Translations under genes and position numbers: made by a program
Notes under the pieces: generated by a model
Database searches by the model: none
Told to the model about the DNA's origin: nothing
The model's input: the letters and a program-made list of their open reading frames with translations, nothing else
Shown: positions 9,890 to 31,940 of the stretch, in pieces
How the letters are laid out: each line of letters begins with the position of its first letter
How positions within the stretch are numbered: position 1 is the stretch's first letter
Assembly: GCA_030041155.1 (NCBI GenBank)
Contig: JASHOJ010000047.1
Location: forward strand, 14,905-78,904
DNA: 64,000 bases
Source of the DNA: Candidatus Binataceae bacterium
Lineage (GTDB): Bacteria > Desulfobacterota > Binatia > Binatales > Binataceae
Direction of reading: 5' to 3'

Positions 9890-9945
9890 CGTCGCGCCAA
9901 CTAACTGCCGATTAGTTCCGGCAGCGCCCGCCAGAGCCAGAAGAC

Positions 9946-10836
9946 GTGTTTGATCTTGATCGGTACCTGAAAGACCGTGCTGCGACAGTTGAACGCGCCC
10001 TTGAGCGCGCCGTGCCGGAGGTCTCCGGTCCCGATGCGCGCCTGTCCGACGCGATGCGCTACAGCTTGCTCAGCGGCGGCAAGCGCCTTCGGCCAATCCT
10101 GGCGCTCGCCGCTTGCGAGTCGGTCGGCGGCGCAATCGAGTCCGCGATGGGGCTCGCCTGCGCGGTCGAGATGATTCACACCTACTCGCTCATCCATGAC
10201 GATCTGCCGTGTATGGACAACGACGATTTTCGCCACGGCCGCCCAACCAATCACAAGATATACGGCGACGCGATGGCCACGCTGGCCGGCGATGCGCTGC
10301 TGACCGACGCGTTCAAGGTGCTGGCCCGATCGGTTTCGGAAGCCGTGCCGCTTGAGCTTATGGTCGCGACTATCGCGGAGCTTTCCGAGGCCGCTGGCTC
10401 GGCTGGGATGGTTGGCGGGCAGGTGATCGATATTCAGAGCGAGAATCAGAAGCTATCGCTCGACGAGCTGAAGCATCTGCACAGCAAAAAGACCGGCGCG
10501 CTTTTCCGAGCCTCGATATTGGGAGGCGCACGGCTTGGCGGCGCGAGCGCCGCGGAGATGGTCTCGCTGGAAGCCTTCGCGCGCGCCGTAGGGCTGGCGT
10601 TTCAGGTGGTCGACGACATCCTTGATGTGGAATCGACCACCGAAAAAATGGGCAAGCGGACGCAGAAGGACGATGCTCTGGGCAAGGCGACTTTCCCCGC
10701 ACTGCTCGGACTCGAAGAATCGCACGCGTTCGCCCGCTCTCTGATGCACACGGCGCACAGCGCGATTGCGGGCTTCGGCGATCGCGCCGAACCTTTGCGC
10801 CAGATCGCAGCGTTCATGGTGGAGCGCAAATCATGA
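9946..10836 (+). CDS. ispA: polyprenyl (farnesyl/geranylgeranyl) diphosphate synthase
   Basis: First and second Asp-rich motifs LIHDDLPCMDNDDFRHGRPT and FQVVDDILD. GTG start. Confidence 0.85.
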   Translation: MFDLDRYLKDRAATVERALERAVPEVSGPDARLSDAMRYSLLSGGKRLRPILALAACESVGGAIESAMGLACAVEMIHTYSLIHDDLPCMDNDDFRHGRPTNHKIYGDAMATLAGDALLTDAFKVLARSVSEAVPLELMVATIAELSEAAGSAGMVGGQVIDIQSENQKLSLDELKHLHSKKTGALFRASILGGARLGGASAAEMVSLEAFARAVGLAFQVVDDILDVESTTEKMGKRTQKDDALGKATFPALLGLEESHAFARSLMHTAHSAIAGFGDRAEPLRQIAAFMVERKS

Positions 10837-11891: not shown

Positions 11892-11909
11892 CGGCGCGAA
11901 TTTAAGCGG

Positions 11910-13889
11910 GTGCAAGCGATTGGTATGAGCCAGATTGTAGAGACTGATTTTCCGGCGCAAGCCGCGCCGATAGCATCACGCGACGAGTTCGCGGCCAAAA
12001 TCGATTTCACCATCGACCGCGCGCAGCGATCGCTTATCGCCGCGCAGTATCCTGAGGGCTACTGGCACGCTCCGCTCGAGGCGAATGCGGAGATGAACGC
12101 CGAGTTCATCATCTTCAATCACTTCATGGAGAATGTCGATCCGGTTCTCGAGTCGAAACTCAAGAAATTCCTGCTCGATAGTCAGAACGCCGACGGCAGT
12201 TGGAGCCTCTATGCCGGTGGCGAGGGCTATCTGTCGAGCACGATTGAGGCCTACTTCGCGCTCAAGCTTGCCGGGATGCGCGCCGGCGACGAGCCGCTGC
12301 TCCAATCTCGCCGATGGATTCTCGCGCACGGCGGAATCGAGAAGTGCGGAACCCTTGCGCGCTTCTATCTTGCCGCGATGGGGCAGGTGCCGTGGGAAGC
12401 TACCGCGGCGATTCCCCCCGAGGTCGTGCTGCTGCCCAACTGGTTCCCGTTCAACGTGTATGAACTGGCATCGTGGGCGCGCGGCACCGTCTTCGGCCTG
12501 ATGGTTCTGCAGGCGATGCGCCCGATGGTGCCGGTGAGCTTTCAGGAAGGCGTGCTGGAGCTTTACATTCAGCCTCCGCACTTCACGCGCTTCAAACAGC
12601 CGGCCGCGGCGCGTCTTTTCTCTCTGCGCTCGATGTTTAACGTGCTCGATCGCGGCCTCCGCTTCTACAATCGGCACGCGCCCTCCGGTCTTCGCTCAAA
12701 AGCGCTTCGCGCGGCAGAGAGCTGGATCGTCGAGCATCAGGAGGCCAATGGTTCATGGGGCGGTATCGAGCCATGCTACCTGCTGAGCGCGATGGCGCTG
12801 AAGGCGCTTGGCTACAAGCTCGATCATCCGGTGCTCAAAAAGGCGCTTGAGGCGTCCAAGGAGCTTATCTGGGAGTTCGGCGATCGCGCGCTCTATATGC
12901 CGTGCGTCTCGCCCAACTGGGACAGCGCGCTTGCGGCCAAGGCGCTGCTCGATTCCGGACTCGATCGGAGTCATCCCGCTCTTACGAAGTGCACCGAATG
13001 GTTCATCGATCATCAGATCTTCGAGCGCGGCGACTGGTCGATAAAACGGCCGAAGCTCGAGCCGGGCGGCTGGGCGTTTGAGTTCTACAACAATTGCTAT
13101 CCCGATGTGGACGATTCCGCCGTGATCCTCGCCGCGATGGCGGAGTGCGAAGGCGCGGATAAGGAGAAGCGCGATCGTTCGATTCGCGCCGGCGCGAACT
13201 GGGTGATGGGGATGCAATCGAAGGACGGCGGTTTCGCCGCCTTCGACGTTGATAATGATTCGCACTGGCTCAATTCGCTGCCGCTCGCGGATGTCGAAGC
13301 GGTGACCGATCCCTCGTGCGCGGATCTGACCGGACGCGTGCTCGAGATGATGGGCGCGGTCGGCTACAAGCCCGACCATCCTGTCGCTCGCCGCGCGATC
13401 GATTGGCTCCGAAAAAATCAGACGCCCGAGGGCGCGTGGTGGGGAAGGTGGGGCGTCGCCTACATTTATGGAACTTTCTCCGCGCTGTCAGGATTGCGCG
13501 CGATAGGCTTTGACATGAGCGAGCCCTGGATTCGCCGCGCGGTCGAGTGGCTCAAGTCAAAGCAGAACGAAGACGGTGGTTGGGGCGAGAGCCCGATGGC
13601 CGACAGGGATTCCGCCTGGCGCGGACGCGGCACCAGTTGCGCCTCGCAGACCGCGTGGGCGCTCATCGGTCTCGTCGCGGGCGAAGATGGTGTTTCTGAT
13701 AGCGCGATGCGCGCGGCGTCTTGGCTCTGGGAGCGGCAGAACGACAATGGCGCGTGGGACGAATCGGAGTTTACCGGCAACGGCTTCCCAAACCATTTTT
13801 ATCTCCGATACTACATGTATTCCCATTATTTCCCGTTGATGGCGCTGGGCCGGCTCAGAAAACGCATCTCTGAAACGCGGGCGTCTTGA
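11910..13889 (+). CDS. shc: squalene-hopene cyclase
   Basis: Multiple QxxxGxW repeats and the catalytic DVDDSAV (DxDD) motif. An alternative ATG start lies at 11925. Confidence 0.9.
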   Translation: MQAIGMSQIVETDFPAQAAPIASRDEFAAKIDFTIDRAQRSLIAAQYPEGYWHAPLEANAEMNAEFIIFNHFMENVDPVLESKLKKFLLDSQNADGSWSLYAGGEGYLSSTIEAYFALKLAGMRAGDEPLLQSRRWILAHGGIEKCGTLARFYLAAMGQVPWEATAAIPPEVVLLPNWFPFNVYELASWARGTVFGLMVLQAMRPMVPVSFQEGVLELYIQPPHFTRFKQPAAARLFSLRSMFNVLDRGLRFYNRHAPSGLRSKALRAAESWIVEHQEANGSWGGIEPCYLLSAMALKALGYKLDHPVLKKALEASKELIWEFGDRALYMPCVSPNWDSALAAKALLDSGLDRSHPALTKCTEWFIDHQIFERGDWSIKRPKLEPGGWAFEFYNNCYPDVDDSAVILAAMAECEGADKEKRDRSIRAGANWVMGMQSKDGGFAAFDVDNDSHWLNSLPLADVEAVTDPSCADLTGRVLEMMGAVGYKPDHPVARRAIDWLRKNQTPEGAWWGRWGVAYIYGTFSALSGLRAIGFDMSEPWIRRAVEWLKSKQNEDGGWGESPMADRDSAWRGRGTSCASQTAWALIGLVAGEDGVSDSAMRAASWLWERQNDNGAWDESEFTGNGFPNHFYLRYYMYSHYFPLMALGRLRKRISETRAS

Positions 13890-13916
13890 AACCGCGTGCC
13901 GTAACTGGTTGCGCAG

Positions 13917-15095
13917 ATGGCGTCAAAGGCAATCTCGATTCTCGGAACCACCGGCTCGGTTGGAGTGACCACCCTCGACGTGGTCGCGCGCTATCGAGAT
14001 CGCTTTCGCGTGGTTGCGATGGCTGCCGGAAGAAATCTAGATCTCCTGGTTCGCCAGATTGCTGATTTCAAGCCCGAGCTGGTTTCGGTTGCCAATGCTG
14101 CCCTCGCCGTGGAGCTGCGCGCTCGGCTTACAGCCGGCAGCCGAGTTGAGATCGCGCACGGGCTTGAGGGTGCGTGCGCCGTCGCGACTCATCCCGAGGC
14201 GAAGCTCGTGGTCTCAGCGCTGGTCGGCGCGCTTGGCCTGCGTCCCACCCTGGCCGCTATCAAGGCGGGCAAAGACATCGCGTTTGCCAATAAGGAGGTT
14301 CTGGTTGTCGCCGGAGAGATGGTCACGCGCGCGGTTCGCGAGTCCGGCGTGCGCCTGCTTCCGGTCGATAGCGAACACAACGCGATTTTCCAGTGCCTTG
14401 AGGGGCGCGGCCGCGACTCGCTCAAGCGAATCATCCTTACCGCGTCGGGCGGTCCTTTCCGCGAGCTTTCCGCCGATCGCTTCGCTGCGATTACGGTCGA
14501 GCAGGCGCTCAAGCATCCCACCTGGCGGATGGGCAGCAAGATCACGATCGACTCGGCGACCCTGATGAACAAAGGGCTGGAAGTGATCGAGGCGCGGTGG
14601 TTGTTCGATGTATCTCGCGCGCGGGTAAACGTTGTCATCCATCCGCAGAGCGTCATCCATTCGATGGTCGAGATGGTTGACGGCTCGGTTATCGCCGAGA
14701 TGGCGATTCCCGATATGGCGATTCCGGTCGCCTACGCGCTCGCGTATCCGGAGCGTCTGCCGCTGCCTCATCTTAAACCGCTATCACTTGCCGAGTGCTC
14801 GCGGCTGACGTTCGAGGAGCCTGACCTCGACCGTTTTCCGTGCCTGCGGCTCGCATTCGACGCGCTCGACGCCGGCGCGACGATGCCCGCGTGCCTGAAC
14901 GCCGCGAATGAGGAACTGGTCGCCGGATTTCTGGCCGGCAAAACGCGCTTTATCGATATCCCGCGGCATATCGAGACAATCATGCGGCGGCATCCGAATT
15001 CTCCGGCGCGAACCCTGGAAGATCTGCTCGAAGTTGACGAATGGGCGCGTGCAGAGGCGCGCCAACTAATCGGCGGCACGCCAAAAGCCGCCTGA
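13917..15095 (+). CDS. dxr: 1-deoxy-D-xylulose-5-phosphate reductoisomerase
   Basis: N-terminal ILGTTGSVG NADPH motif, then LLPVDSEHNAIFQ and ITVDSATLMNKG motifs. Confidence 0.9.
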   Translation: MASKAISILGTTGSVGVTTLDVVARYRDRFRVVAMAAGRNLDLLVRQIADFKPELVSVANAALAVELRARLTAGSRVEIAHGLEGACAVATHPEAKLVVSALVGALGLRPTLAAIKAGKDIAFANKEVLVVAGEMVTRAVRESGVRLLPVDSEHNAIFQCLEGRGRDSLKRIILTASGGPFRELSADRFAAITVEQALKHPTWRMGSKITIDSATLMNKGLEVIEARWLFDVSRARVNVVIHPQSVIHSMVEMVDGSVIAEMAIPDMAIPVAYALAYPERLPLPHLKPLSLAECSRLTFEEPDLDRFPCLRLAFDALDAGATMPACLNAANEELVAGFLAGKTRFIDIPRHIETIMRRHPNSPARTLEDLLEVDEWARAEARQLIGGTPKAA

Positions 15096-15112
15096 TACGA
15101 GGTCGTACTTCG

Positions 15113-16045
15113 ATGGATGCGATACGGACGCGGGAGGCGGGACCGGAAGGCTTAGGTGCCGGATCGGATCTCGCCGCTGATGCGTTCGGCGCGCAATCCC
15201 TCAGGCTCGACGAGGCCTACGCCTGGTGCGGAAAACTCGCGCGCTCGCATTACGAGAACTTCACCATCGCGTCGTGGCTGATGCCGGCGGCGATGCGCAA
15301 GCATATGCACGCGATCTACGCGTACGCGCGAATTGCCGACGACTTCGCCGACGAGGAGCACGATCTCAAAAAGCTCGACGATTGGGAGCGCCAGCTCGAC
15401 CTCGCGTACGCCGGCGCGCCGCGGCATCCGGTATTCGTCGCTCTTGCGGATACCGCCAGAAAGTATGATATCCCGCGCGGCCCATTCGCCGATCTGCTGA
15501 CCGCGTTTCGCTCCGACGTCGATTTCAAAGGCTTCGAGACGATGGACGAGTTGCTGGGCGGCTACTGCGCTTACTCGGCCAATCCGGTCGGCCGTCTGGT
15601 GCTCTATCTGTTCGGCTACCGCGACGCGGAGCGCCAGCGCGCGTCTGATCTGGTATGCAGCGGCCTTCAGCTTGCGAATTTCTGGCAGGACGTCGCGATC
15701 GATCTCGAAAAGGGCCGCATCTATTTTCCGCGCGCTGACCTCGCGCGCTTTGGCGTAACCCCGTCCGATCTCCAGAGTGGAGCTGTGACCGCGCAATTCA
15801 CCGCTCTGATGGACCACGAGATCGGCGTCGCGCGCGCGATGCTGCGCGAAGGAGGACTCACTCTCGCCGGATCGGTGGACCGGCGCCTGCGCCGCGACAT
15901 CCTGATGTTCGCCGGCGGAGGACTGGCGATTTTGCGCTTGATTGAACAGGCAGGCTGCGATGTGTTCCGCAACCGTCCGAAGCTTTCCAAACTCGACTAT
16001 TTCAAACTTGGCTGGAATGCCTTGAGAGGACGACTTGAAACCTGA
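15113..16045 (+). CDS. hpnC: squalene-synthase-like HpnC (hydroxysqualene synthase)
   Basis: Trans-isoprenyl diphosphate synthase fold: YAYARIADDFADE and LANFWQDVAIDLEKGRIYFP. Confidence 0.8.
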   Translation: MDAIRTREAGPEGLGAGSDLAADAFGAQSLRLDEAYAWCGKLARSHYENFTIASWLMPAAMRKHMHAIYAYARIADDFADEEHDLKKLDDWERQLDLAYAGAPRHPVFVALADTARKYDIPRGPFADLLTAFRSDVDFKGFETMDELLGGYCAYSANPVGRLVLYLFGYRDAERQRASDLVCSGLQLANFWQDVAIDLEKGRIYFPRADLARFGVTPSDLQSGAVTAQFTALMDHEIGVARAMLREGGLTLAGSVDRRLRRDILMFAGGGLAILRLIEQAGCDVFRNRPKLSKLDYFKLGWNALRGRLET

Positions 16046-16970
16046 ACATGTGCCGGCTAATGCGGATAACTCGGCGCCCGATGCGGCGTTGGTGGCTGAC
16101 TACGAGCACTGCGCTGAAATAACGCGGCGCTCGTCGTCGAACTTCTATTACGCGTTCATGCTGCTGCCCGTCGAGCGGCGCAGAGCGCTCTACGCCGTAT
16201 ATGCCTTCTGCCGCTTCGTCGATGATATAGCGGACGACGGCGCAGGCCCGGATGGCGCGGAGCGCTCGCCGGCGGATTTGCTTCGCCAGTGGCGCGACGA
16301 GCTCGATCGCGTCTACCGCGGCGCGCCGACCCGCGCTATCTCGCGCGCGCTTGCCGATACCGCGGCGCGATTCGCGATCCCGCGCGGCTACTTCGACGAG
16401 GTGATCTCCGGGGTCGAGATGGACCTCTCGCAGAAGCGCTACGCCACCTTTGACGACTTGCGGCTCTATTGTTTTCGCGTCGCTGCCGCGGTCGGGCTCA
16501 TCTGTATCGAAATTTTCGGCTACAGCAATCCGAACGCGCGGGTGTATGCGGAATATCTGGGAATCGCGTGCCAGCTCACCAACATCCTGCGCGACGTCAA
16601 GGAAGACGCCGGGCGCGGCCGTATCTATCTGCCGCTTGAGGATCTGGCCCGCTTCGGCGTGAGCGAAGATGAAATTCTGCGCGGAATTTATAGCGACGCC
16701 TTCGTGCGCCTGATGGAATTCGAAGCCGCGCGCGCCCGCGATTTCTACGATCAGGCCGATCGCCTGCTTCCCGACGAAGACCGGTCCAGCTTGCGCACGG
16801 CCGAGGCGATGCGGCAGATTTACGGCTCGCTGCTGAACCTGATCGTCCAGTCGAATTACCGCGTGCTGGACAAGCGGCTCAGCCTCTCCGCGACGCGCAA
16901 GCTCTATCTGGTCGGGCGCGTATGGGCCAGTTCCAGGCTCGGCGCGCTGCGCGGCCAGGCGCGCGCCTAA
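16035..16970 (+). CDS. hpnD: presqualene diphosphate synthase HpnD
   Basis: YAFCRFVDDIADD and GIACQLTNILRDVKEDAGRGRIYLP motifs. Non-ATG start (TTG at 16035 or GTG at 16050) overlapping the hpnC stop. Confidence 0.8.
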   Translation: MKPEHVPANADNSAPDAALVADYEHCAEITRRSSSNFYYAFMLLPVERRRALYAVYAFCRFVDDIADDGAGPDGAERSPADLLRQWRDELDRVYRGAPTRAISRALADTAARFAIPRGYFDEVISGVEMDLSQKRYATFDDLRLYCFRVAAAVGLICIEIFGYSNPNARVYAEYLGIACQLTNILRDVKEDAGRGRIYLPLEDLARFGVSEDEILRGIYSDAFVRLMEFEAARARDFYDQADRLLPDEDRSSLRTAEAMRQIYGSLLNLIVQSNYRVLDKRLSLSATRKLYLVGRVWASSRLGALRGQARA

Positions 16971-17000
16971 TAGCATGGGTGAGCGCGAGCCGCCGGCACG

Positions 17001-18380
17001 ATGTCAATGATCGACCCGAAAGATGTGGTCGTGATCGGCGGCGGATTCGCGGGACTCAGCGCGGCGGTGGCGCTTGCCGAAAAAGGTTTTCGGGTCGCGG
17101 TGCTGGAAGGAAAGCCGTCGCTTGGCGGGCGCGCTTACTCGTTCCAGGATCCCGATACCGGCGACTTCGTCGATAACGGCCAGCATGTGCTGATGGGATG
17201 CTATACGGCCACGCTGGATTTCCTGCGCAGAATCGGATCGGCGGATAATCTGGTCTTTCACCAGGATCTCGAAATCGAGATGCTGGCGGGGCCTGGCAAC
17301 AGCGCTACCTTGCGCACCGCGCCGCTGCCCGGACCTCTTCATATGAGCGCCGCCCTGATGCGCTATCGGCATCTCAGCGTCGCCGAGCGGATTCAGGTCG
17401 TGCGCGGAGGGTTAAGGTTGCTCGCGATGCGCCGCCGCGATCGTCGCGCGCTGGAAAAGATGACTGTCACGGCTCTGATGGAATCGCTCGGGCAGAGCGC
17501 GAATGCCTGCCGCGCGTTCTGGTTCCCGCTTTCGATTGCGACGCTCAATGACGAGCCGCGGCTATCCTCGGCGGCGCTGCTCGCCGAGGTGCTCAAACGC
17601 GCGTTTTTCTCTCGCCGCCGCGATTCGGCTTTCGTCTATTCGCGGGTTGGACTGAGCGACCTTTATTGCACCGGCGCTCGCGCGATTATCGAGAACGCGG
17701 GCGGCGTCGTATCCACTCGCGCGATTGTCGATTCCCTCGATCGCGGCGAAGACGGCTCGGTTGCTTGCGCGCGGCTGCGGGACGGCCGCAGGCTCGGCGC
17801 CGCCAATTTCATCTCCGCCGTGCCGCCGCAGAGCCTCACGCGGATGCTGCCCGCGGAGGATGGCGCGGATCCATATTTTTCGCGGCTAGCGGAGCTTGGC
17901 GATTCGCCGATCATCTGCGTCCACGTATGGTTCGATCGGGAGATTACCCGCTCCGCGTTCGTCGGCTTTATCGGCGCCACCACTCAGTGGATGTTCAACA
18001 AGCGCAGGATTTTCGAGCGGCACGGCGAGCGGCATCCCGGCTATTTGAGTTTCGTGATCAGCGGAGCGCGCAGACTGGTCGACAGCTCCAATGATGCGCT
18101 GCTCGACCTGGTGCTGGCCGATCTCTGCGCCATGATTCCCGCCGCGCGCGATGCGAAAGTCGTGAAAGCGCTGGTGCTCAAGGAGAAGCGGGCCACGATG
18201 GCGCCCGACCTGCGCTCTCATCAGCTCCGCCCGGGAACCGTGTCGCCGCTCAAAAATCTGTTTCTTGCCGGCGACTGGGTGCAGACCGGTCTTCCCGCGA
18301 CTATCGAAAGCGCGGTCATCTCCGGAATGGCGGCGGCGTCCGCGGTGGCCGCACGATCAACATCCCTTCAGGCGCAATGA
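17001..18380 (+). CDS. hpnE: hydroxysqualene dehydroxylase HpnE (FAD amine-oxidase fold)
   Basis: VVVIGGGFAGLSAAVALAEKGFRVAVLEGKPSLGGRAYSF dinucleotide-binding motif. Position is directly after hpnD. Confidence 0.85.
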   Translation: MSMIDPKDVVVIGGGFAGLSAAVALAEKGFRVAVLEGKPSLGGRAYSFQDPDTGDFVDNGQHVLMGCYTATLDFLRRIGSADNLVFHQDLEIEMLAGPGNSATLRTAPLPGPLHMSAALMRYRHLSVAERIQVVRGGLRLLAMRRRDRRALEKMTVTALMESLGQSANACRAFWFPLSIATLNDEPRLSSAALLAEVLKRAFFSRRRDSAFVYSRVGLSDLYCTGARAIIENAGGVVSTRAIVDSLDRGEDGSVACARLRDGRRLGAANFISAVPPQSLTRMLPAEDGADPYFSRLAELGDSPIICVHVWFDREITRSAFVGFIGATTQWMFNKRRIFERHGERHPGYLSFVISGARRLVDSSNDALLDLVLADLCAMIPAARDAKVVKALVLKEKRATMAPDLRSHQLRPGTVSPLKNLFLAGDWVQTGLPATIESAVISGMAAASAVAARSTSLQAQ

Positions 18381-19381
18381 TGGATCCGAAGCTCGCGCTG
18401 GTAACCGGCGGCAACGGCTTTGTCGGATGCTATGTCGTGCGCGCCCTCCTTCGACAGGGCTGCCGGGTGCGGGTGCTGGTTCGCGAGCACGCCGACATCA
18501 CGGCGCTTGCCGGCCTTCAGGTTGATCTCGCGCGCGGTGATTTGCGAGACGCCCATGCGGTCAGGCGCGCTGCTGCGGGATGCAGCGAGGTTTATCACGT
18601 CGCTGCCGATTACCGCCTGTGGGTGCCGGATCCGGCGGCCATGTACGCGAGCAACGTCGATGGAACCCGCAATGTAATAGAAGCCGCGCGGGCGGCGGGC
18701 GTCCAGCGTATCATTTACACCAGCACGGTCGGCGTTCTCGGGATTCCGCATGGCGCGCCCGGCACCGAAGAGACGCCCTCGTCGCTTCAGGACATGCCCG
18801 GACCATATAAGCGATCGAAATTCATGGCCGAAGAGGTTGCTCGCGAGGCCGCGCGCGCCGGCGCTCCAGTCGTGATCGTGAATCCATCAACCCCGGTGGG
18901 CGCGCTCGATCTGAAACCGACTCCCACCGGACGAATCATCCGCGACTTCATAAGTGGCAGGATGCCGGCATACGTGGACACCGGGCTTAATCTGGTTGAC
19001 GTGGAAGACTGCGCGCGCGGCCATCTGCTTGCCGCCGAGCGCGGGAAAATCGGCGAGCGATATATTCTGGGCGGGGAAAACCTGACCTTAAAGGAGATGT
19101 TCGAGCGTCTTGAGCGCCTGTCGGGAGTGCCGGCTCCGAAGCACAGAATTCCATACGCGGTCGCGCTCGGATTTGCGCTCGGCGCGGAGACGCTAGCGCG
19201 CACGGTGACCCATCGCGCTCCGCGCGCCAGCGTCACCGAGGTCCGGATGTCGCGCAAGCACATGTTCTTTGATTCGTCGAAGGCGCGCAGCGAACTTGGC
19301 TACGCTCCGGGCCCGGTGGATGGCGCGCTTGCGCGCGCGATCGAGTTCTTTCGCAACTCCGCGCCCTCGCGAGCGGCTTAG
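18377..19381 (+). CDS. hpnA: hopanoid-associated NAD-dependent epimerase/dehydratase HpnA
   Basis: LVTGGNGFVGCYVVRALL Rossmann motif and a YKRSK active site. ATGA overlap with hpnE. Confidence 0.8.
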   Translation: MMDPKLALVTGGNGFVGCYVVRALLRQGCRVRVLVREHADITALAGLQVDLARGDLRDAHAVRRAAAGCSEVYHVAADYRLWVPDPAAMYASNVDGTRNVIEAARAAGVQRIIYTSTVGVLGIPHGAPGTEETPSSLQDMPGPYKRSKFMAEEVAREAARAGAPVVIVNPSTPVGALDLKPTPTGRIIRDFISGRMPAYVDTGLNLVDVEDCARGHLLAAERGKIGERYILGGENLTLKEMFERLERLSGVPAPKHRIPYAVALGFALGAETLARTVTHRAPRASVTEVRMSRKHMFFDSSKARSELGYAPGPVDGALARAIEFFRNSAPSRAA

Positions 19382-19393
19382 CGGAAACCTTCG

Positions 19394-20290
19394 ATGCATC
19401 TGCTGATAGGCACGATCCTGCTCAGGCCGTATGTGTTCGTATTCCTGGTGAGCTTCCTGTTCATCGCGATCGTGAACTTCGGCGTTCGCACCACGATCCT
19501 GTTTTCGATTCTCACCTACGGCGTCGCGCTCGGATGCGAATGGTCATCGGTGCATAACGGGTTCCCATTCGGCCTTTATCATTATGTATACGCAACCCGC
19601 GAGCGCGAACTGTGGGCCGCCGGCGTGCCGGTGTTCGATTCTCTGTCGTTCACTTTTCTTGCGTTTGCCAGTTACACCGTCGCGCTGCTCTTGAGCTCGC
19701 CGCTTTATCGCCGCGGATGGGATCTGCGGATTCTGGACACCTGGAAGATTCGCCGTTCGCCGCGCGTGTGGCTGATGGCGGCGCTGTTCATGGTGATGAT
19801 CGACATGGTGGTCGATCCGCTGAGCGTGCGCGGCGAGAAATGGTTTCTCGGCAGGATATTCTGGTACGACCCGGCCGGACCGCACTTTGGAGTTCCGATC
19901 AGCAATTACCTGGGATGGTACTTCGTCGGCGCGATCACGATCGCGATCTTTGTCGCGCTCGATCAGCTCCTGAATCGATCGGCCGCGCGTCCCGCGGGAG
20001 TGGCGGAGCGATTGCCGTCACGCGCGATTCTGGGGCCGCTGCTCTACGCCGGAATAGCGATCTTCGGAATCACGATGCTGTTTTGGATCGGCGCGGCTGA
20101 AATCGCATGGGCCAGCGTCTTCATCTATCTGCCGTTCGCCGCCCTGGTCGCGCATATTCTGACCCGGAGCGGCTCGTATGGTGACGCCGCGGACCGGGAG
20201 CGTCATCTGGCCGACTTTCACTACGAGCGGGATCTTCCGGTGTTTACCTGCGAATCGGGTGAAACCGCCCCGCTGCGGCGCCGGCTATGA
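19394..20290 (+). CDS. polytopic membrane protein, DUF422 / 'carotenoid biosynthesis protein'-like, hopanoid-cluster associated
   Basis: Seven or more predicted TM helices and a conserved GFPFGLYHY segment. No catalytic motif recognised. Confidence 0.5.
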   Translation: MHLLIGTILLRPYVFVFLVSFLFIAIVNFGVRTTILFSILTYGVALGCEWSSVHNGFPFGLYHYVYATRERELWAAGVPVFDSLSFTFLAFASYTVALLLSSPLYRRGWDLRILDTWKIRRSPRVWLMAALFMVMIDMVVDPLSVRGEKWFLGRIFWYDPAGPHFGVPISNYLGWYFVGAITIAIFVALDQLLNRSAARPAGVAERLPSRAILGPLLYAGIAIFGITMLFWIGAAEIAWASVFIYLPFAALVAHILTRSGSYGDAADRERHLADFHYERDLPVFTCESGETAPLRRRL

Positions 20291-25288: not shown

Positions 25289-26239
25289 TTAGGCCGCCGC
25301 GCGAACCGCGACGGTATTCGGCTTCGAGGCGGCGCGCCTCAGGATCGCGAGATATCCAGGCTGGATTTCCATTCGCGGGCCGTATCCCTTGGCCAGCAGG
25401 ATCCGATGCGCCGCAGGCAGGTTGTAGCACGGCGCCGACATCAGCAGGTGATGCTCGAGGTGGTAGTTGACGAAGTAGGGCGCGATGAACGCGCGCTCGA
25501 TCCAGTTGGCGTGCGTGGTGCGAGTGTTGCGCAGCGGGTCGTCATTGTCCGCCACCATCGAATGTTCCGCGATGCTGCGGATGCGGGTGATAAGCTCGTT
25601 GAACGTCAGCAGCGGCACGACCCACAAAAGCGGATACAGCCACCAGTACCCGGCGATAGCCAGAGCTGCGAACAGGACCGCGTTGGTGATGAAGAATCCG
25701 TGAAAGCGCGTCCATCCTCTGCCGAACTGCGACGCGATCGATTTGCCGGGAGCCGAAAACGCCCGTCTTAGCGCCCCCACGCGCTGCTTGTACGCGGTCT
25801 GTCCGGTTAAATCGCGAATGACTTTGCGCTTGAAGCTCGAACGCGTGATCGGGAACGGAGCGCCGAGCGCGAGGTCGGGATCGTTCGGCTGCTGAGTGAA
25901 GCGGTGATGCAGAATGTGGTAGCTGCGGTACGCGTACATGTCGGACATCAGCGGATCGCCGAGAATCCACGCGCCCACAAAATCATTCAGCTTGAGATTC
26001 TTGAACAGCAGCCCGTGCGCCGCGTCATGCATCAGGATTGCGAGTCCGAGCTGCCGCGCGCCGATAATCATCACCGCCAGCACGAACGTGATCGGATTCG
26101 GCCACCATACGAACAGCGCCATCGCGAGGAAAATCGTTCCCCACGCGTGCAACACCATCCAGGCGCCGCGCAAATCGGACTTGCGCTTCAGATCGAGCAG
26201 CTCATCGGGGGTGAAGATGTTGCTGGCTTTGAATAACAT
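25289..26239 (-). CDS. membrane fatty-acid desaturase-family protein
   Basis: Histidine boxes HDAAHG, HILHHRF and HHLLMSAP. Confidence 0.75.
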   Translation of the reverse strand: MLFKASNIFTPDELLDLKRKSDLRGAWMVLHAWGTIFLAMALFVWWPNPITFVLAVMIIGARQLGLAILMHDAAHGLLFKNLKLNDFVGAWILGDPLMSDMYAYRSYHILHHRFTQQPNDPDLALGAPFPITRSSFKRKVIRDLTGQTAYKQRVGALRRAFSAPGKSIASQFGRGWTRFHGFFITNAVLFAALAIAGYWWLYPLLWVVPLLTFNELITRIRSIAEHSMVADNDDPLRNTRTTHANWIERAFIAPYFVNYHLEHHLLMSAPCYNLPAAHRILLAKGYGPRMEIQPGYLAILRRAASKPNTVAVRAAA

Positions 26240-26306
26240 CGCTTTTGCAATCTCTCGACGCGGCTCGCTACCGCCGCATCGAGAAAGAATGTAACAGAAA
26301 TATGCG

Positions 26307-27131
26307 ATGATTGCAAGAGGCAGTTATAAACTTCCCGATCTTCCGCCCGCCAGAACGGTGGTGTTGGATTTTCTGTCCAACCGTGCTCCGCGCGAAATGT
26401 CGGTGCAGGCGGTGCTCGCGGCCGGATCGATTTTCGGGTTTTCCGAGCAGAACCTGCGGATGGCGCTGGCCCGGCTGGTCGAGCAGGGACTGGCCCGCAG
26501 CACCGGCCGCGGCAAGTACGCGCTGGCGAGCTCGGGCGAGGCGATGCGCAGCGAGGTGCGAAAGTGGCGCACGATTACCGAAGCAACACGGGCGTGGTCG
26601 GGCGCATGGATCGCGATCTACAACGCCGGCGCGGCTCGGAGCGATCGCAGCGCCATTCGCCGCCACGAGGGCGCGATGAATCTGCGCGGGTTTCGCCCGC
26701 TTACGCCCGACCTGTGGCTGCGCCCGGCGAACCTGCGCGAGAGTATCGGCGGCTTGCGCGAACACATGCACGCTCTCGGATTGCATCCCGAGGCTCTGGT
26801 CGGCGCGCTGGACGAGCTGGATGTTGAAACTCAGACCCGAGCCCGGCGGCTGTGGGATGCCGCAGCGCTGCTCGCATCGTATCGCGCGCTTGCACGGGCG
26901 CTTGCGGAAAGCCGGCGAAGCGTCGAGGCGCTGCCGCTCGACAAAGCCGCCGCCGAAACGATGCTTCTGGGCCGCGACGTAATTCGCCACATAAATCTCG
27001 ATCCGTTGCTGCCCGAAGAGATGATGCCGCGGCATCATTTTCGCGCGCTGGTGAGCGCGATGATCGAATACGACGAGATCGGGCGCCGCATCTGGCGCGA
27101 GCTGATGCGCCGGATCGAGAACGGGCGCTGA
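26307..27131 (+). CDS. PaaX-family transcriptional regulator
   Basis: N-terminal winged HTH (LRMALARLVEQGLARSTGRGKYAL) and a PaaX-like C-terminal domain. Divergent from the desaturase. Confidence 0.5.
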   Translation: MIARGSYKLPDLPPARTVVLDFLSNRAPREMSVQAVLAAGSIFGFSEQNLRMALARLVEQGLARSTGRGKYALASSGEAMRSEVRKWRTITEATRAWSGAWIAIYNAGAARSDRSAIRRHEGAMNLRGFRPLTPDLWLRPANLRESIGGLREHMHALGLHPEALVGALDELDVETQTRARRLWDAAALLASYRALARALAESRRSVEALPLDKAAAETMLLGRDVIRHINLDPLLPEEMMPRHHFRALVSAMIEYDEIGRRIWRELMRRIENGR

Positions 27132-27134: not shown

Positions 27135-27551
27135 TTATGCGAGCAGTCCCTTGCCCGGAATGTGGTTGATCTCGAGCCGGATCCCATCCGGATCTTCGAA
27201 CAGGACCGAGTAATATCCAGGCGCCCACGGCCCGACCTCGGGCGGATGGATGATGTTCGCGCCGATCTGCTTCAGAAATTCGTACGCAGCGTCGATATCC
27301 GAATGTTCGCGCGCGCGAAAGCACAGGTGATGCAGCCCGGATCGGCCTTGCGCGAAGCCTTGCCCGCGGTAGGCGGCATCCGCGCGGATTATTCCAACTC
27401 CGGTTCGCGCCCCAATACAGTAAAACTGCGAATCGGTCTTGCGCACAACGAATTTAAGCCCGAGGAATGGCAGCAGCTTCTCGTAAAAAGGCAGGCACGC
27501 CTCGAAGTTGCTGACGGTCAGCATCACATGCGCAGTTCCGTTGATTTCCAT
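27135..27551 (-). CDS. VOC/glyoxalase-bleomycin-resistance family protein
   Basis: Paired beta-alpha-beta-beta-beta modules; the HVMLTVSNFEA and HLCFRA metal-ligand segments. Confidence 0.6.
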   Translation of the reverse strand: MEINGTAHVMLTVSNFEACLPFYEKLLPFLGLKFVVRKTDSQFYCIGARTGVGIIRADAAYRGQGFAQGRSGLHHLCFRAREHSDIDAAYEFLKQIGANIIHPPEVGPWAPGYYSVLFEDPDGIRLEINHIPGKGLLA

Positions 27552-27629
27552 CTCTTGCGCCTTCTCGGTCGGCCAAACTCGCTCGCTGCCAAATTAAAGT
27601 AATACTTTAATTCAGCATGCGCGCGCGCC

Positions 27630-28640
27630 TCAGTGCGCGAGCATCCGGCGGGCGTCGGGCTGTTGATGGCCCAAAATCGGATGCGGCCGGTAAGATTTCT
27701 CGAGCGCCGCGACTTCCTCCGCGCTGAGCTTGATGTCCACCGCGTCTATAGCCTCTTTGAGGTGCTTCAACTTGGTCGCGCCGATAATCGGTGCTGTCAC
27801 ACCAGGCGCCTGGAGGATCCATGCGCACGCGATTTGCGAGGGCGTAACGCCGCGCGCCTTGGCGAGCTTTTCGACCTCGCCAAGCACCTCGAAATCGGTT
27901 TCGGCGAAGTACATATTTTTTGCAAAATCGTCGGATTTCGCGCGCGCGGTGTCGCCGCTCTTCTGAGCGTTTCTATTTCCCGCCAGGAACCCGCGCGCAA
28001 GCGGACTCCACGGAATCAGGCCGACGCCCTCATCGATGCACAACGGATTCATCTCCCGCTCTTCTTCGCGATAGACCAGGTTGTAATGGTTCTGCATCGA
28101 GACGAACCGATGCCATCCGTTGCGCTCCTGCAAGTTGAGCGCTTTCTGGAACTGCCACGCCGCCATCGAGCTTGCGCCGAGGTAGCGCACCTTGCCCGCG
28201 CGCACCAGCGAATCGAGCGCGTCCAGGGTTTCTTCCAGAGGAGTCGAGAAGTCGAAGCGATGAATCTGGTACAGGTCGATGTAGTCCATCTTGAGGCGGC
28301 GCAGCGAAGCGTCGCACGCCTCCAGGATATTTTTGCGCGAAAGGCCGCTGCGATTCGGCTTCGGCGACATCTGGCCGTGAACCTTGGTCGCGAGCACGAT
28401 GTCTTCGCGCTTCATCATCTCGCCGAGCCATCTTCCGGTGATCTCCTCGCTGACCCCGATCGAGTAAACGTTGGCGGTATCGAAAAAGTTGATCCCCAAT
28501 TCGATCGCGGCGGCGAAGTGATCGCGCGCTTCGTCCATCGTGAGCACCCAATCGCGCCATTTTTTGTCGCCATAGCTCATGCATCCCAGGCAGATGCGGG
28601 AGACAGTCAGGCCGGTTCGTCCGAGTTTCGCGTAGTTCAT
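27630..28640 (-). CDS. aldo/keto reductase
   Basis: LGRTGLTVSRICLGCMSYG N-terminus and an IPWSPLARG C-terminal motif. Confidence 0.85.
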   Translation of the reverse strand: MNYAKLGRTGLTVSRICLGCMSYGDKKWRDWVLTMDEARDHFAAAIELGINFFDTANVYSIGVSEEITGRWLGEMMKREDIVLATKVHGQMSPKPNRSGLSRKNILEACDASLRRLKMDYIDLYQIHRFDFSTPLEETLDALDSLVRAGKVRYLGASSMAAWQFQKALNLQERNGWHRFVSMQNHYNLVYREEEREMNPLCIDEGVGLIPWSPLARGFLAGNRNAQKSGDTARAKSDDFAKNMYFAETDFEVLGEVEKLAKARGVTPSQIACAWILQAPGVTAPIIGATKLKHLKEAIDAVDIKLSAEEVAALEKSYRPHPILGHQQPDARRMLAH

Positions 28641-28665: not shown

Positions 28666-29562
28666 TCAGCGAAGCGAACCATACCAGTTCGCGATAGCCG
28701 ATCCGATCTCGTGCGGCGAGTCTTCCTGCACGAAATGAATTCCCTTTACCGTCACCTCGCGCTGATTTGGCCATCCGCGGCAAAAATCGCGCTGCACACC
28801 GGTCAGGATCGCGCCCGGATCGGCGTTGATGAAAAGCTTGGGAATCGTACTCGCCGCGAGCCAATCCGCATAGCCTTGCACCACCGCGACCACGTCGTCC
28901 GGGTCGCCATCGATCGGGATTTCGCGCGGCCAGGTAAGAGTTGGGCGGCGCGATTCGCCCGCTTCAGCGAACGGTTTGCGGTAATTGTCCATCTCTTCAG
29001 CGCTGAGCTTGCGGATGATGCTGCCGGGCAGAATTCGCTCGACAAAAACGTTGCGATTCAGAATCAAGTCCTCGCCCGCGGGACTGCGCAGCGTCTTGAA
29101 CAAGTCGCGCGCGGCGTCAGGCCACTCGGACCATTTGAGAGGCCGCACGATCGCTTCCATGTACGCGATTCCCCGCACGCGGTCAGAGTGCCGGCGCGCC
29201 CATTCGAAGCCGAGCGCCGATCCCCAATCGTGAACCACCAGCGTCACTCGTCCGTTCGGCGCCGCCGCCGCAAGCAAAGCGTCCAGATGCACCGCGTGAT
29301 CGGCGAAGCGGTAAGTCTCCGAGACGGTGCGGCCCGACGCGCCCATTCCGACCAGATCGGGCGCGACGCATCGCGCATGCGAGGCAAGACGCGGGATAAC
29401 GTTGCGCCACAGGTACGACGAGGTCGGATTGCCATGGATCAGGACTATGGTATCGCGGCCGTCGCCGGCGTGACCGGTATCGACATACGCCATCGAGGTG
29501 CCGAGCACTTCCGCGCGTTTGCGGGGATAGGGATCGGTTGCGGAAATTTCGCCGGTGCTCAT
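28666..29562 (-). CDS. alpha/beta hydrolase, haloalkane-dehalogenase-like
   Basis: IVLIHGNPTSSYLWR, the HDWGSALGF nucleophile elbow (Asp nucleophile) and a C-terminal His. Confidence 0.75.
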   Translation of the reverse strand: MSTGEISATDPYPRKRAEVLGTSMAYVDTGHAGDGRDTIVLIHGNPTSSYLWRNVIPRLASHARCVAPDLVGMGASGRTVSETYRFADHAVHLDALLAAAAPNGRVTLVVHDWGSALGFEWARRHSDRVRGIAYMEAIVRPLKWSEWPDAARDLFKTLRSPAGEDLILNRNVFVERILPGSIIRKLSAEEMDNYRKPFAEAGESRRPTLTWPREIPIDGDPDDVVAVVQGYADWLAASTIPKLFINADPGAILTGVQRDFCRGWPNQREVTVKGIHFVQEDSPHEIGSAIANWYGSLR

Positions 29563-29597
29563 AGCAGGATGCTCCGGGAGAATAGCGATCGGATAAT

Positions 29598-29619
29598 GGT
29601 TAAGTCGGGAAACTTAACC
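29598..29619. promoter_or_regulatory. 8-bp inverted repeat (candidate operator) in the divergent promoter region
   Basis: GGTTAAGT-cgggaa-ACTTAACC, between the hydrolase start and the FAD oxidase start. Confidence 0.3.
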
Positions 29620-29749
29620 GATTAATACGGCGTTGTGGTAGCGCACGCAACCTGAAATCGCGCCGCTTGCGCGCGCAGTTTGAGCGGGCGCAAGATCGCC
29701 GCAGCCGGCAATCAGCCGCCGTGCGTAAGAGCGTCATCAGGAGAACATC

Positions 29750-31357
29750 ATGGCGGAGCGAAGGCGCAAATTCTGGGGATGGGGCTACGAAGACCAGGGT
29801 CCGAATCCCGAGCAGCAAAAGCATATGGCGGAGCGGATGGCGGCGCGATTCGGATTGAGCGAGCTTCCAATCACTCCGCCGCCCACAGAAAGCGAGCTCA
29901 AGTTGCGCGCGCCCCGCGCGGCTGCGCCTGCGGCGCTCAGCGAAATCTGCTCGTCTTCGACGTATGAGCGCGCACTGCACAGCTACGGACGCGGATTCGG
30001 CGATATCGTGCGCGCCTTTCGCCGCGATTTTTCGAACCCGTTCGACGTGGTTGCATATCCGCGCGACGAGCGCGACATCGTGCGCCTGCTCGAATGGTGC
30101 GACGGCGCAAAGCTTGCGGCGGTTCCGTTCGGCGGCGGATCGAGCGTGGTTGGCGGCGTCGAGCCTCCCAAGGGAGATAGGTTGCGCGGCGCGGTTTCGA
30201 TCGATCTGAGCAAACTCGATCGCGTATTGGAGGTCGACAAAACCTCGCGCGCGGCACGGATTCAGGCCGGCGTGCTCGGTCCCGCGCTGGAAGACCAGCT
30301 CCGTCCGCACGGATATACGCTGAGGCACTTTCCGCAGTCGTTCGAGTTTTCGAGCCTGGGCGGATGGATTGCCACGCGATCCGGCGGCCATTTCGCGACC
30401 TTGTACACGCATATCGACGATTTCGTCGAGTCGCTGCGCGTGGTCACGCCGACCGGAACTCTCGAAACTCGGCGGCTGCCCGGCTCGGGCGCGGGTCCGA
30501 GTCCGGACCGGATGTTTATCGGATCGGAGGGGATTCTCGGCATCATCACCGAGGCCTGGATGCGCTTGCAGGATCGGCCCGAGTTTCGCGCCAGTGCATC
30601 GGTCGCGTTTCCCGATTTCATGTCTGGCGCGGCGGCGGTCCGGCAGATCGCGCAGGCGGGTCTGTATCCCGCCAACTGCCGCCTGCTCGATCCTGGTGAG
30701 GCGCAGAATTCGGGCGCGAGCGACGGCAGCACGGCGGTGCTGGTGCTCGCGTTCGAGTCGAAAGACCATGCGCTGGAGCCGTGGATGAAACGGGCGCTCG
30801 AGTGCTGCGCCGATCACGGCGGAAAAGTTCCGCAAGAGGCCGGCCGCACACGAACCGATTCGGCCGCGACTCACGAAGGCGCCGCCGGCGCATGGCGCAA
30901 CGCGTTTATCAACGCGCCGTACCTGCGCGACACGGTGGTTGCGATGGGGATGGTCAGCGAGACGTTCGAGACCTCGATCACGTGGGATCGATTTCCGAAT
31001 TTTCACGCTAAGCTGATGGAATGCGCGACCGATATGGTGCGGCGCGTGTGCGGCAAGGGGACGGTGACGTGCCGCTTCACCCACGCTTATCCCGACGGGC
31101 CCGCGCCCTATTACACGGTGCTTGCGCCGGGCAAAAAGAACTCGCAGATCGAGCAGTGGGGCGAAATCAAGCAGGCGGTTTCGGATCTTCTGATCGATCT
31201 CGGCGGCACGATCACGCATCATCACGCGGTCGGCAGAGACCATCGCAGATGGTACGATCGGCAGCGTCCTGAAGCCTTCGCACGCGCTCTGAAAGCGGCC
31301 AAGCGCGAGCTGGATCCGCGCGGTATCCTGAATCCCGGCGTGTTGATCGATCCGTAG
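29750..31357 (+). CDS. FAD-linked oxidase, alkyldihydroxyacetonephosphate-synthase (AGPS)-like
   Basis: N-terminal FWGWGYED segment characteristic of AGPS, a PCMH-type FAD-binding domain (AVPFGGGSSVVGG) and a C-terminal VAO domain. Confidence 0.7.
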   Translation: MAERRRKFWGWGYEDQGPNPEQQKHMAERMAARFGLSELPITPPPTESELKLRAPRAAAPAALSEICSSSTYERALHSYGRGFGDIVRAFRRDFSNPFDVVAYPRDERDIVRLLEWCDGAKLAAVPFGGGSSVVGGVEPPKGDRLRGAVSIDLSKLDRVLEVDKTSRAARIQAGVLGPALEDQLRPHGYTLRHFPQSFEFSSLGGWIATRSGGHFATLYTHIDDFVESLRVVTPTGTLETRRLPGSGAGPSPDRMFIGSEGILGIITEAWMRLQDRPEFRASASVAFPDFMSGAAAVRQIAQAGLYPANCRLLDPGEAQNSGASDGSTAVLVLAFESKDHALEPWMKRALECCADHGGKVPQEAGRTRTDSAATHEGAAGAWRNAFINAPYLRDTVVAMGMVSETFETSITWDRFPNFHAKLMECATDMVRRVCGKGTVTCRFTHAYPDGPAPYYTVLAPGKKNSQIEQWGEIKQAVSDLLIDLGGTITHHHAVGRDHRRWYDRQRPEAFARALKAAKRELDPRGILNPGVLIDP

Positions 31358-31499: not shown

Positions 31500-31817
31500 C
31501 TAGTCGTCGATGCCGAGTTTGCGGCGCGCCTCTTCGCTCATCATATGCGGCGTCCATGGCGGATCCCACACGATTTCCACGTTCGCGTCGCCGCATCCGG
31601 GCAGCCCCAGCAGCTTGTCCTGGATTTCCTGCGTGATCATCGCGCCGAGATGGCATCCGGGCGCGGTCAGCGTCATCGTGACGTTGATGTTCGCGCCGTC
31701 GAGCGTGACCGCATAGACAAGGCCCAGGTCAACGATGTTGACCGGAATTTCGGGGTCGTAGCATTCGCGCAGCACCTCGTAAACGTCGGCCTCGGTGATT
31801 GCGAGCGAATTATCCAT
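31500..31817 (-). CDS. DUF59/MIP18-family Fe-S cluster assembly protein (SufT/PaaD-like)
   Basis: LRECYDPEIPVNIVDLGLVY...TAPGCHLG conserved-Cys motif. Start taken at the internal Met. Confidence 0.65.
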   Translation of the reverse strand: MDNSLAITEADVYEVLRECYDPEIPVNIVDLGLVYAVTLDGANINVTMTLTAPGCHLGAMITQEIQDKLLGLPGCGDANVEIVWDPPWTPHMMSEEARRKLGIDD

Positions 31818-31940
31818 CGGCGTGCGAGGTATTATATAAAAGAACTGCCGTCGAGGCATACGCAGCCAAATCGCGGCATGCGCGCCGATAGTCGGATAGC
31901 AGACGGCGCGAAACTCTTAATGCATCAGGAGGGCAGTTAT

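Follow-up and report, generated by a model that had tools for sequence, protein, structure and literature searches.

The locus raises the question of whether two divergent genes, one for an alkyl-DHAP synthase-like (AGPS-family) FAD enzyme and one for a haloalkane dehalogenase (HLD), form a functional pair around a shared palindrome, and which chemistry the FAD enzyme performs. Both lie within a 64-kb window, i.e., the whole stretch of DNA that was analyzed, which derives from a soil bacterium, an uncultured member of the Binataceae. The AGPS-family gene (29750–31357, + strand) encodes 535 aa, begins with MAERRRKFWGWGYEDQG and is preceded, at a distance of 6 nt, by the ribosome-binding site AGGAG; it appears monocistronic, since the downstream SufT-like gene is convergent. 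Separated from it by 187 bp (29563–29749), the 298-aa HLD is encoded on the opposite strand (28666–29562, − strand) and is the probable first gene of an HLD–AKR(–VOC) transcription unit. The aldo/keto reductase (AKR; 27630–28640, − strand, 336 aa; PF00248, E = 5e-83) starts 25 nt beyond the HLD stop codon; it is probably co-transcribed with HLD, and a VOC/glyoxalase-family protein (27135–27551, − strand, 138 aa; PF00903, E = 5e-15) follows, so that both neighbors named in the preliminary description are indeed there.

The Pfam scan of the 535-aa protein returned FAD_binding_4 (PF01565) and FAD-oxidase_C (PF02913), an architecture common to D-lactate dehydrogenase (D-LDH)/GlcD of the VAO family. 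The best NCBIfam match was TIGR00387 GlcD, though its 138 bits stayed below the cutoff of 568. Both observations would suit a dehydrogenase for D-lactate, glycolate or D-2-hydroxyacids with no more than a likeness to AGPS. Against the PDB, however, the protein matched Dictyostelium ADPS (2uuu; 248 bits, E = 1e-72) and guinea-pig AGPS (4bby; 210 bits, E = 6e-61) with more than double the score of D-LDH (103 bits, E = 1e-28), and a profile of 36 sequences gave 337 and 281 bits for AGPS versus 138 bits for D-LDH. Foldseek ranked in agreement: the best 37 matches were all AGPS, with TMq of 0.55–0.70 (at least 0.62 except for one chain), and D-LDH followed below at 0.50–0.54. Eukaryotic AGPS (EC 2.5.1.26), with its VAO-type FAD and cap domains, is thus the best match in both sequence and structure. 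D-LDH/GlcD enzymes, furthermore, have neither the N-terminal WGWGY domain nor the HHH loop, both of which are present in the 535-aa protein together with the catalytic Tyr and Arg. We consider a dehydrogenase extremely improbable, and the sequence comparison effectively refutes it. The closer affiliation with D-lactate/glycolate dehydrogenases lacking the N-terminal extension, which the preliminary description had named as refuting its assignment, was not found, because the protein is AGPS-like by sequence, profile and structure ranking.

Three residues of the Dictyostelium enzyme, R352, R447 and Y508, are important for catalysis according to mutagenesis (PMC3509576), and with the numbering checked against that paper they align to R311, R393 and Y454 of the 535-aa protein. 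Guinea-pig R419, Y578 and the HHH loop 615–617 are conserved as well, the loop corresponding to H490–492. Among 36 homologues, whose record titles represent at least eight phylum-level groups, R311, Y454 and H490–492 are invariant and R393 is at least 90% conserved. An alignment to the AGPS catalytic residues, including the His/Tyr loop, had been proposed as a check on the assignment, and all of these residues proved to be present. The FWGWGY N-terminus reported earlier was also recovered: K7-F-W-G-W-G-Y13 (codons at 29768–29788, + strand) matches K92-WNGWGY98 of guinea-pig AGPS (chain 4bby), both conforming to the K-[WF]-x-G-W-G-Y motif of the eukaryotic enzymes. All 36 homologues share W11 and G12, F8 and W9 reach at least 90% conservation among them, and the motif is conserved throughout the bacterial clade. 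HMMER left the first 62–66 residues of the protein unaligned to AGPS, and phmmer with the first 105 residues alone returned no match in the PDB; the motif was confirmed by comparison with the guinea-pig N-terminus instead.

The AF2 model, which was built from an alignment of sequences 75–80% identical to the query, shallower than the 36-sequence set, is mediocre (mean pLDDT 69.8) and poor at residues 190–276 (pLDDT below 50). It predicts a confident helix at residues 20–33, following the motif, at the place where the gating helix would be expected. Unlike the eukaryotic enzymes, the protein has no peroxisomal targeting extension and no FAR or GNPAT nearby, its N-terminal domain is approximately 23 residues shorter than in mammalian AGPS over the stretch from the motif to the FAD domain, and its identity to characterized AGPS is only 32–33%. 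The protein cluster of the 535-aa sequence has no name attached, and literature searches with Rv3107c and with the names of the AGPS catalytic residues found nothing useful. Judged by sequence, the product is a true AGPS/ADPS-family member and a VAO-type flavoenzyme, and the AGPS-like FAD oxidase of 535 aa described earlier is upheld, with its reading frame and FAD domains.

We infer that AGPS-like chemistry is the most likely activity of this protein. Oxidized FAD would serve as the electrophile, Tyr454 would abstract the C1 proton from an acyl-DHAP-type substrate, and, after the fatty acid has left from the flavin-N5 adduct, a long-chain alcohol would add to yield the ether bond; Arg311, Arg393 and the His490–492 loop would hold the substrate. 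The genomic context leaves room for another physiological substrate or direction on the same fold and active site, such as ether/acyl exchange or cleavage on another hydroxyketone phosphate, or the breakdown of alkylglycerols or ether lipids, linked to acyl-CoA catabolism rather than to membrane ether-lipid synthesis. No FAR, GNPAT-type acyltransferase or PEDS1/CarF was found in the 64-kb window or within 6 kb of 80 homologues, which, together with the low identity to characterized AGPS, agrees with an altered substrate. The recurrent neighbors in distant loci point the same way, being catabolic acyl-CoA genes: enoyl-CoA hydratase occurs in 19 loci, and acyl-CoA dehydrogenase, CoA-transferase III and LLM-class oxidoreductases recur as well. 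Their adjacency is, however, likely due to chance, because these families are very common in the genomes concerned, and all residues relevant to AGPS catalysis are invariant or nearly so. Domain fusions in relatives also speak against an altered substrate. Two AGPS-like relatives (41% and 37% identical, one of them from a Fidelibacterota MAG) are fused to GlpD-type glycerol-3-phosphate dehydrogenase, an enzyme that makes DHAP; one relative at 33% identity carries a fused PF01553 PlsC/GNPAT-type acyltransferase, and a eukaryotic relative at 48% identity a fused acyl-CoA-binding domain. These fusions support DHAP/acyl chemistry as in AGPS. We regard an altered substrate or direction as possible but rather unlikely.

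Two genes of the window were considered as pathway partners and rejected. The desaturase at 25289–26239 matches PF00487 rather than the CarF/TMEM189 family, PF10520, and is not a PEDS1/CarF equivalent. The HpnA-like epimerase at 18377–19381 lies inside a hopanoid cluster and, with a partial NAD_binding_4 match and no FAR C-terminal domain, does not qualify as a FAR.

The enzyme was previously described as rare in bacteria, which the survey contradicts for this clade. Close relatives occur in at least 599 species-level genomes from approximately nine phyla by record titles, 599 of 600 matching stretches being confirmed, and the protein search gave at least 8000 matches, many of them already named alkyldihydroxyacetonephosphate synthase by JGI. 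The gene family is therefore widespread and already annotated, and this one locus contributes nothing that annotation does not already state. The AGPS-like clade is well conserved, with 56–82% identity across Binatia, Myxococcota, Acidimicrobiia, Chloroflexota, Alphaproteobacteria, Acidobacteriota and others. Protist sequences at 46–48% identity were recorded as well.

Ether-lipid synthesis in bacteria other than myxobacteria and anaerobes is only partly understood. Genetic evidence for a bacterial AGPS homologue exists, to our knowledge, only for MXAN_1676 of Myxococcus xanthus. Its deletion causes a minor drop in alkyl ether lipids; the protein is ~42% identical to human AGPS and is encoded in an operon with a FAR–GNPAT fusion and an NAD-dependent epimerase (PMC9131029). 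The window protein is likewise a bacterial member of the AGPS family, but its gene appears monocistronic and without FAR–GNPAT neighbors, and its sequence is more distant from eukaryotic AGPS. AGPS homologues outside Myxococcota are recorded in genome surveys (PMC13159169, PMC13012113), and our literature search found no report of a tested one. What the locus does show is a broadly distributed clade that keeps every catalytic residue and has relatives carrying GlpD or a PlsC-type acyltransferase as a fusion partner; for these reasons, the clade is a reasonable candidate for biochemical tests. Binatota are well equipped for alkane and haloalkane oxidation. We speculate, as an idea that is unlikely to hold, that the clade gives aerobic bacteria of soils and the sea a genuine way to make alkyl ether lipids without FAR, with fatty alcohols drawn from alkane or haloalkane oxidation and no dedicated reductase. 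If so, bacterial ether lipids in the environment would have a source in this clade that has been overlooked.

On the other side of the intergenic region, the DhaA-like hydrolase of the preliminary description is well defined. It matched the NCBIfam haloalkane dehalogenase family NF002938 with 415 bits (cutoff 241) and, over its full length, the PDB entries 7pw1 (E = 1e-117) and LinB 1cv2 (E = 1e-109). The catalytic pentad is intact (N45, D112, W113, E136, H276; motifs HGNPT, HDWGS, YMEAI and GIHFV) and aligns identically to LinB-type chains, in which the corresponding positions are N38, D108, W109, E132 and H272 of LinB. Compared with LinB, DmbA and DhaA (HLD-II), the Asp-His-Glu triad and the Asn/Trp halide pair are conserved, with no notable difference. 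The divergent gene is thus predicted to encode an ordinary LinB-type (LinB/DmbA) HLD-II and a genuine member of the group. Genes of the dhaA type are reported in all Binatota genomes (PMC8262859).

The presence of both enzymes side by side might suggest a functional pair under one palindromic operator, in which, for example, the primary alcohols that the HLD releases from haloalkanes would go into the ether bond. The products of HLDs are primary alcohols, the co-substrate class of AGPS, and 14 Binataceae loci share the divergent arrangement. These 14 are among the 20 closest loci (L001–L020 and L030 minus one, at least 73% identity; some end upstream), and the HLD neighbor occurs in none of the remaining, more distant ones. 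SufT, TPR, SDR, EthD and MalQ genes retain their order in those Binataceae relatives. The HLD–AGPS adjacency is confined to close Binataceae relatives and is accidental and local: gene order inherited within Binataceae is what keeps the two genes side by side. A functional tie of the AGPS gene to the HLD, the reductase or the VOC protein is not supported by this comparison, as the adjacency is restricted to Binataceae and unrelated flanking genes are kept equally well. A pair would also join enzymes of different chain-length range, since LinB-type enzymes prefer short and medium chains, C3–C10 (PMC8262859), whereas the AGPS tunnel accommodates ~C16 (PMC3509576).

The sigma-70 consensus scanner called no promoter in the intergenic region, and the terminator scanner found no terminator there or downstream of the AGPS gene. 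Two promoter-like blocks nevertheless emerged from the alignment of related genomes. The predicted HLD promoter (29622–29650, − strand) comprises a −35 TTGCGT (reverse complement of 29645–29650), a 17-nt spacer and a −10 TATTAA (reverse complement of 29622–29627); both hexamers have invariant alignment columns, and TTGnnn-17 nt-TATnnn is found in 14 of 14 genomes. The predicted AGPS promoter (29667–29696, + strand), with −35 TTGCGC at 29667–29672, an 18-nt spacer and −10 CAAGAT at 29691–29696, has invariant TTG and CA..AT columns, and TTGnnn-18 nt-CAnnAT recurs in all 14 genomes (17 nt in one). We infer a separate, conserved promoter-like block for each gene. The AGPS gene would be transcribed alone from its predicted promoter, and the HLD would head its own HLD–AKR(–VOC) unit.

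The palindrome, a perfect 8+8 inverted repeat GGTTAAGT-N6-ACTTAACC without strand assignment, lies at 29598–29619 as GGTTAAGT-cgggaa-ACTTAACC, with an imperfect extension to 29593–29626. It occurs once in the window; no second copy was found in the 64 kb with three mismatches allowed. When the intergenic region was shuffled 5000 times, 156 of the shuffles held a perfect inverted repeat with arms of 8 bp or more and a spacer of up to 12 nt; such a repeat was also present in 23 of the 342 tiles, each of 187 bp, that were laid over the window, so that the chance frequency is 3–7% and the palindrome is not statistically remarkable; an expectation of 0.01 applies to that exact palindrome sequence only, picked post hoc. 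None of the 13 orthologous intergenic regions contains the palindrome, which coincides with a gap in the alignment and is best read as a lineage-specific (species-specific) insertion of ~25 nt over the predicted HLD transcription start. It spans roughly −3 to +19 relative to that start and leaves a 2-nt gap to the inferred HLD −10, and its imperfect extension overlaps the predicted −10; this overlap with a predicted core promoter would speak for the operator model. Against such a role, the palindrome lies 48 bp upstream of the predicted AGPS −35, and no regulator gene is adjacent to it. The 187-bp region with its palindrome is thus present as described earlier, but a shared palindromic control of both genes is not borne out, given its absence in the orthologues and the separate predicted promoters.

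The pairing with the HLD and the palindrome, the two features that made the locus look special, fail the comparison with related genomes, and we consider a functional AGPS–HLD pair very improbable. We favor, with moderate confidence, a reading in which an AGPS-family enzyme with AGPS chemistry is expressed from its own promoter, the HLD adjacency is inherited and the palindrome is a species-specific insertion. The nearest regulator gene, PaaX-like and window-specific (26307–27131, ~2.5 kb away), was considered as a binder of the palindrome and rejected, as its own intergenic region has a different, unrelated inverted repeat. Kinship to the AT-rich palindrome at 27590–27613 was likewise rejected, because its half-sites are spaced differently and because the version that relatives carry at that place is not palindromic. 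An Rfam scan of 29400–29900 gave no match. If functional, the palindrome would act on the HLD operon, as an operator or a 5′ mRNA hairpin, and not on the AGPS gene. The minus-strand RNA of the palindrome folds as a hairpin, and the 63-nt leader has a folding energy of −14.3 kcal/mol (z = −2.6).

The AGPS-like ORF (29750-31357, plus strand) begins MAERRRKFWGWGYEDQG, is preceded by an AGGAG ribosome-binding site and encodes a 535-aa protein in which Pfam identified the FAD_binding_4 and FAD-oxidase_C domains. Searched against all PDB sequences, the protein matched Dictyostelium alkyl-DHAP synthase best (ADPS, 2uuu; 1e-72, 248 bits), followed by guinea-pig AGPS (4bby; 6e-61, 210 bits), with 33% and 32% identity, respectively, over 450-459 aligned residues; D-lactate dehydrogenase was far weaker (1e-28, 103 bits). 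A profile of 36 homologues widened this gap relative to the single-sequence search, scoring 337 (2uuu) and 281 (4bby) bits versus 138 for D-lactate dehydrogenase. The AlphaFold2 model was mediocre (mean pLDDT 69.8, residues 190-276 below 50; shallow alignment); with it, the top 37 Foldseek matches were all AGPS chains (TMq 0.55-0.70, at least 0.62 except for one chain), compared with 0.50-0.54 for D-lactate dehydrogenase. AGPS thus ranks above D-lactate dehydrogenase in both sequence and structure searches, and a closer affiliation with the D-lactate/glycolate dehydrogenases is therefore not what was found.

The FWGWGY N-terminus noted in the preliminary description was also recovered. HMMER left residues 1-62/66 unaligned; within them, K7-F-W-G-W-G-Y13 resembles K92-W-N-G-W-G-Y98 of guinea-pig chain 4bby, in which the stretch from the motif to the FAD domain is ~23 residues longer than in the bacterial protein. 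W11 and G12 of the motif are invariant across the bacterial clade of 36 homologues, which by record title belong to Binatia, Myxococcota, Actinomycetota, Chloroflexota, Alpha- and Betaproteobacteria, Acidobacteriota, Dormibacterota and Spirochaetales. Mutagenesis of Dictyostelium ADPS has shown R352, R447 and Y508 to be important in catalysis, Y508 being the proposed base (PMC3509576). Allowing for a +3 offset in the PDB chain index, these residues align with R311, R393 and Y454; guinea-pig R419 and Y578 fall on the same R311 and Y454, and the HHH loop of AGPS corresponds to H490-H492, so that every catalytic residue has its counterpart. R311, Y454 and H490-H492 are invariant among the 36 homologues, with conservation of R393 at 90% or more. 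Judged from sequence, the AGPS-like identification is right.

The protein adds a new member to a family that was already known and annotated. A homologue scan (one genome per species) returned at least 600 stretches, 599 of them confirmed, with 56-82% identity to the query in the best 80. The protein search gave at least 8000 matches at E<=1e-20; among the matches listed, many already carry the JGI name 'alkyldihydroxyacetonephosphate synthase', and the closest homologues all come from Candidatus Binataceae/Binatia MAGs, which places the window in that uncultured lineage. Searching 1.84 billion cluster representatives exhaustively yielded 1755 clusters at E<=1e-30, and AGPS homologues have already been recorded from several phyla of bacteria in published surveys (PMC13012113; PMC13159169). 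The family, initially described as rare in bacteria, is uncommon, yet neither rare nor unrecognised. The query shares more identity (46-48%) with two protist sequences, one of them from Diphylleia rotans, than with Dictyostelium or mammalian AGPS (32-33%).

Among the AGPS-like relatives, the cluster representatives P0179, P0223, P0265, P0126 and P0123 were noted. In two bacterial relatives of ~1100 aa (41% and 37% identical), the C-terminal part is a GlpD-type glycerol-3-phosphate dehydrogenase (DAO and DAO_C), and one cluster of these includes a Fidelibacterota MAG; an 801-aa relative (33%) has an N-terminal PF01553 (PlsC-type) acyltransferase, and a 689-aa eukaryotic relative from EukProt (48%) an acyl-CoA-binding domain. 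By domain content, these fusions connect the family at large with the supply of DHAP and the handling of acyl groups, as AGPS chemistry predicts. Because of the fusions and the invariant active site, we consider it moderately likely that the 535-aa protein catalyses an AGPS-type ether-forming exchange. The same two features make the gene a candidate for biochemical testing.

The divergent gene (28666-29562, minus strand; 298 aa) was described as haloalkane-dehalogenase-like, and this holds: its product scored 415 bits on NCBIfam NF002938 (cutoff 241), matched 7pw1 (1e-117) and LinB (1e-109) over its full length, and fills the HLD-II pentad positions with N45, D112, W113, E136 and H276. The gene is an ordinary one; dhaA-type dehalogenases occurred in all genomes of a Binatota survey (PMC8262859). 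Downstream of it on the minus strand lie the expected aldo/keto reductase (AKR, 27630-28640) and VOC/glyoxalase protein (27135-27551). An AT-rich palindrome between these two genes (27587-27617; 15-nt arms, 87% complementarity) has a perfect 11-bp core in the AATTAAAGTAA/TACTTTAATT region; since relatives have a related non-palindromic CAAGTAATAGTTTAAG at the same position, it is probably the VOC promoter region.

To compare neighbourhoods, tblastn of the window's flanking proteins and clustering of called genes were applied to the best 80 of at least 600 loci. Of the 20 closest loci (at least ~73% identical; some without upstream DNA), 14 have the divergent dehalogenase gene, which was absent from all the more distant loci among the 80. 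The downstream SufT-like, TPR, SDR, EthD and 4-alpha-glucanotransferase genes keep the same order in the same close relatives; because these functionally unrelated genes are equally retained, the adjacency reflects shared ancestry rather than selection for co-function, and a functional AGPS-dehalogenase pairing finds no support. The distant loci have varied neighbours, the recurrent ones being enoyl-CoA hydratase (19 loci), LLM-class oxidoreductase (15), acyl-CoA dehydrogenase, CoA-transferase III and aminotransferase; fatty alcohol supply (FAR), GNPAT-type acyltransferase and CarF genes were not among them. Nor did Pfam detect FAR, GNPAT or CarF in the called genes scanned across the 64-kb window, a set excluding the Fe-S genes (51466-53500) and three short ORFs (56093-57001). 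In this the scanned window differs from Myxococcus xanthus, where MXAN_1676, ~42% identical to human AGPS, is located with a FAR-GNPAT fusion (PMC9131029).

Gene order in the closest relatives is M1 peptidase-VOC-AKR-B12 radical SAM-enoyl-CoA hydratase-dehalogenase|AGPS; in four Binataceae loci (L007, L012, L014 and L030; ~2300-4150 in each), the B12-binding radical SAM and hydratase genes stand between the AKR and dehalogenase genes. The window has lost these two genes and gained, after the peptidase, a fatty-acid-desaturase-family gene (25289-26239, minus strand) divergent from a PaaX-like regulator (26307-27131, plus strand). In the closest relatives neither gene is found at the syntenic position, and the pair (25289-27131) therefore looks like an insertion. 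Between them, a 12-nt inverted repeat TCTCGACGCGGC/GCCGCATCGAGA (26253-26284) is a candidate operator.

The 187-bp gap between the dehalogenase and AGPS-like ORFs does contain the perfect inverted repeat GGTTAAGT-N6-ACTTAACC (29598-29619), but its proposed role as a shared operator is not borne out. When this intergenic region was aligned with its 13 orthologues, the repeat coincided with a gap, and no orthologue holds it or an equivalent repeat; the window contains no second copy, no regulator gene adjoins it, and the control region has no Rfam match. The frequency of comparable repeats was 3% among shuffled sequences and 6.7% among tiles of the window. With a search pattern composed after viewing the alignment, two conserved blocks of fixed spacing were found in 14 of 14 genomes: TTGnnn-17 nt-TATnnn (29650-29622, minus strand) and TTGnnn-18 nt-CAnnAT (29667-29696, plus strand; 17-nt spacer in one genome). 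A consensus scanner called neither; we infer that they are separate back-to-back promoters of the dehalogenase and AGPS genes. On this two-promoter reading, the palindrome would begin 2 nt downstream of the predicted dehalogenase -10, spanning ~-3 to +19, and would lie 48 bp upstream of the predicted AGPS -35. In the dehalogenase mRNA it would fold into a 9-bp hairpin at the 5' end; the 63-nt leader of this transcript has a folding energy of -14.3 kcal/mol (z = -2.6). For the dehalogenase-AKR unit, the palindrome could serve as an operator or, at the 5' end, as a stabilising hairpin; it could just as well be neutral.

Elsewhere in the window, a contiguous hopanoid/squalene cluster (8069-20290, plus strand) encodes a TetR regulator, an HpnH-like radical SAM protein with DUF3463, polyprenyl synthase, Zn-dependent alcohol dehydrogenase, squalene-hopene cyclase (11910-13889), Dxr, two SQS_PSY proteins (HpnC/D-like), an HpnE-like amine oxidase, an HpnA-like epimerase and a Caroten_synth family protein. 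A second FAD-linked oxidase (967 aa; 58206-61109, minus strand) has no relationship to the AGPS-like gene. It also has 4Fe-4S dicluster and CCG domains and resembles a YdiJ-type D-2-hydroxyglutarate dehydrogenase. Genes for Fe-S cluster assembly form a block (51466-56059, plus strand) of IscS-, IscU- and IscA-like ORFs (51466-53500), recognised by eye from translations, followed by an HscA-like Hsp70 (53819-56059); a SufT/PaaD-like FeS_assembly_P gene (31500-31859) lies apart from it.
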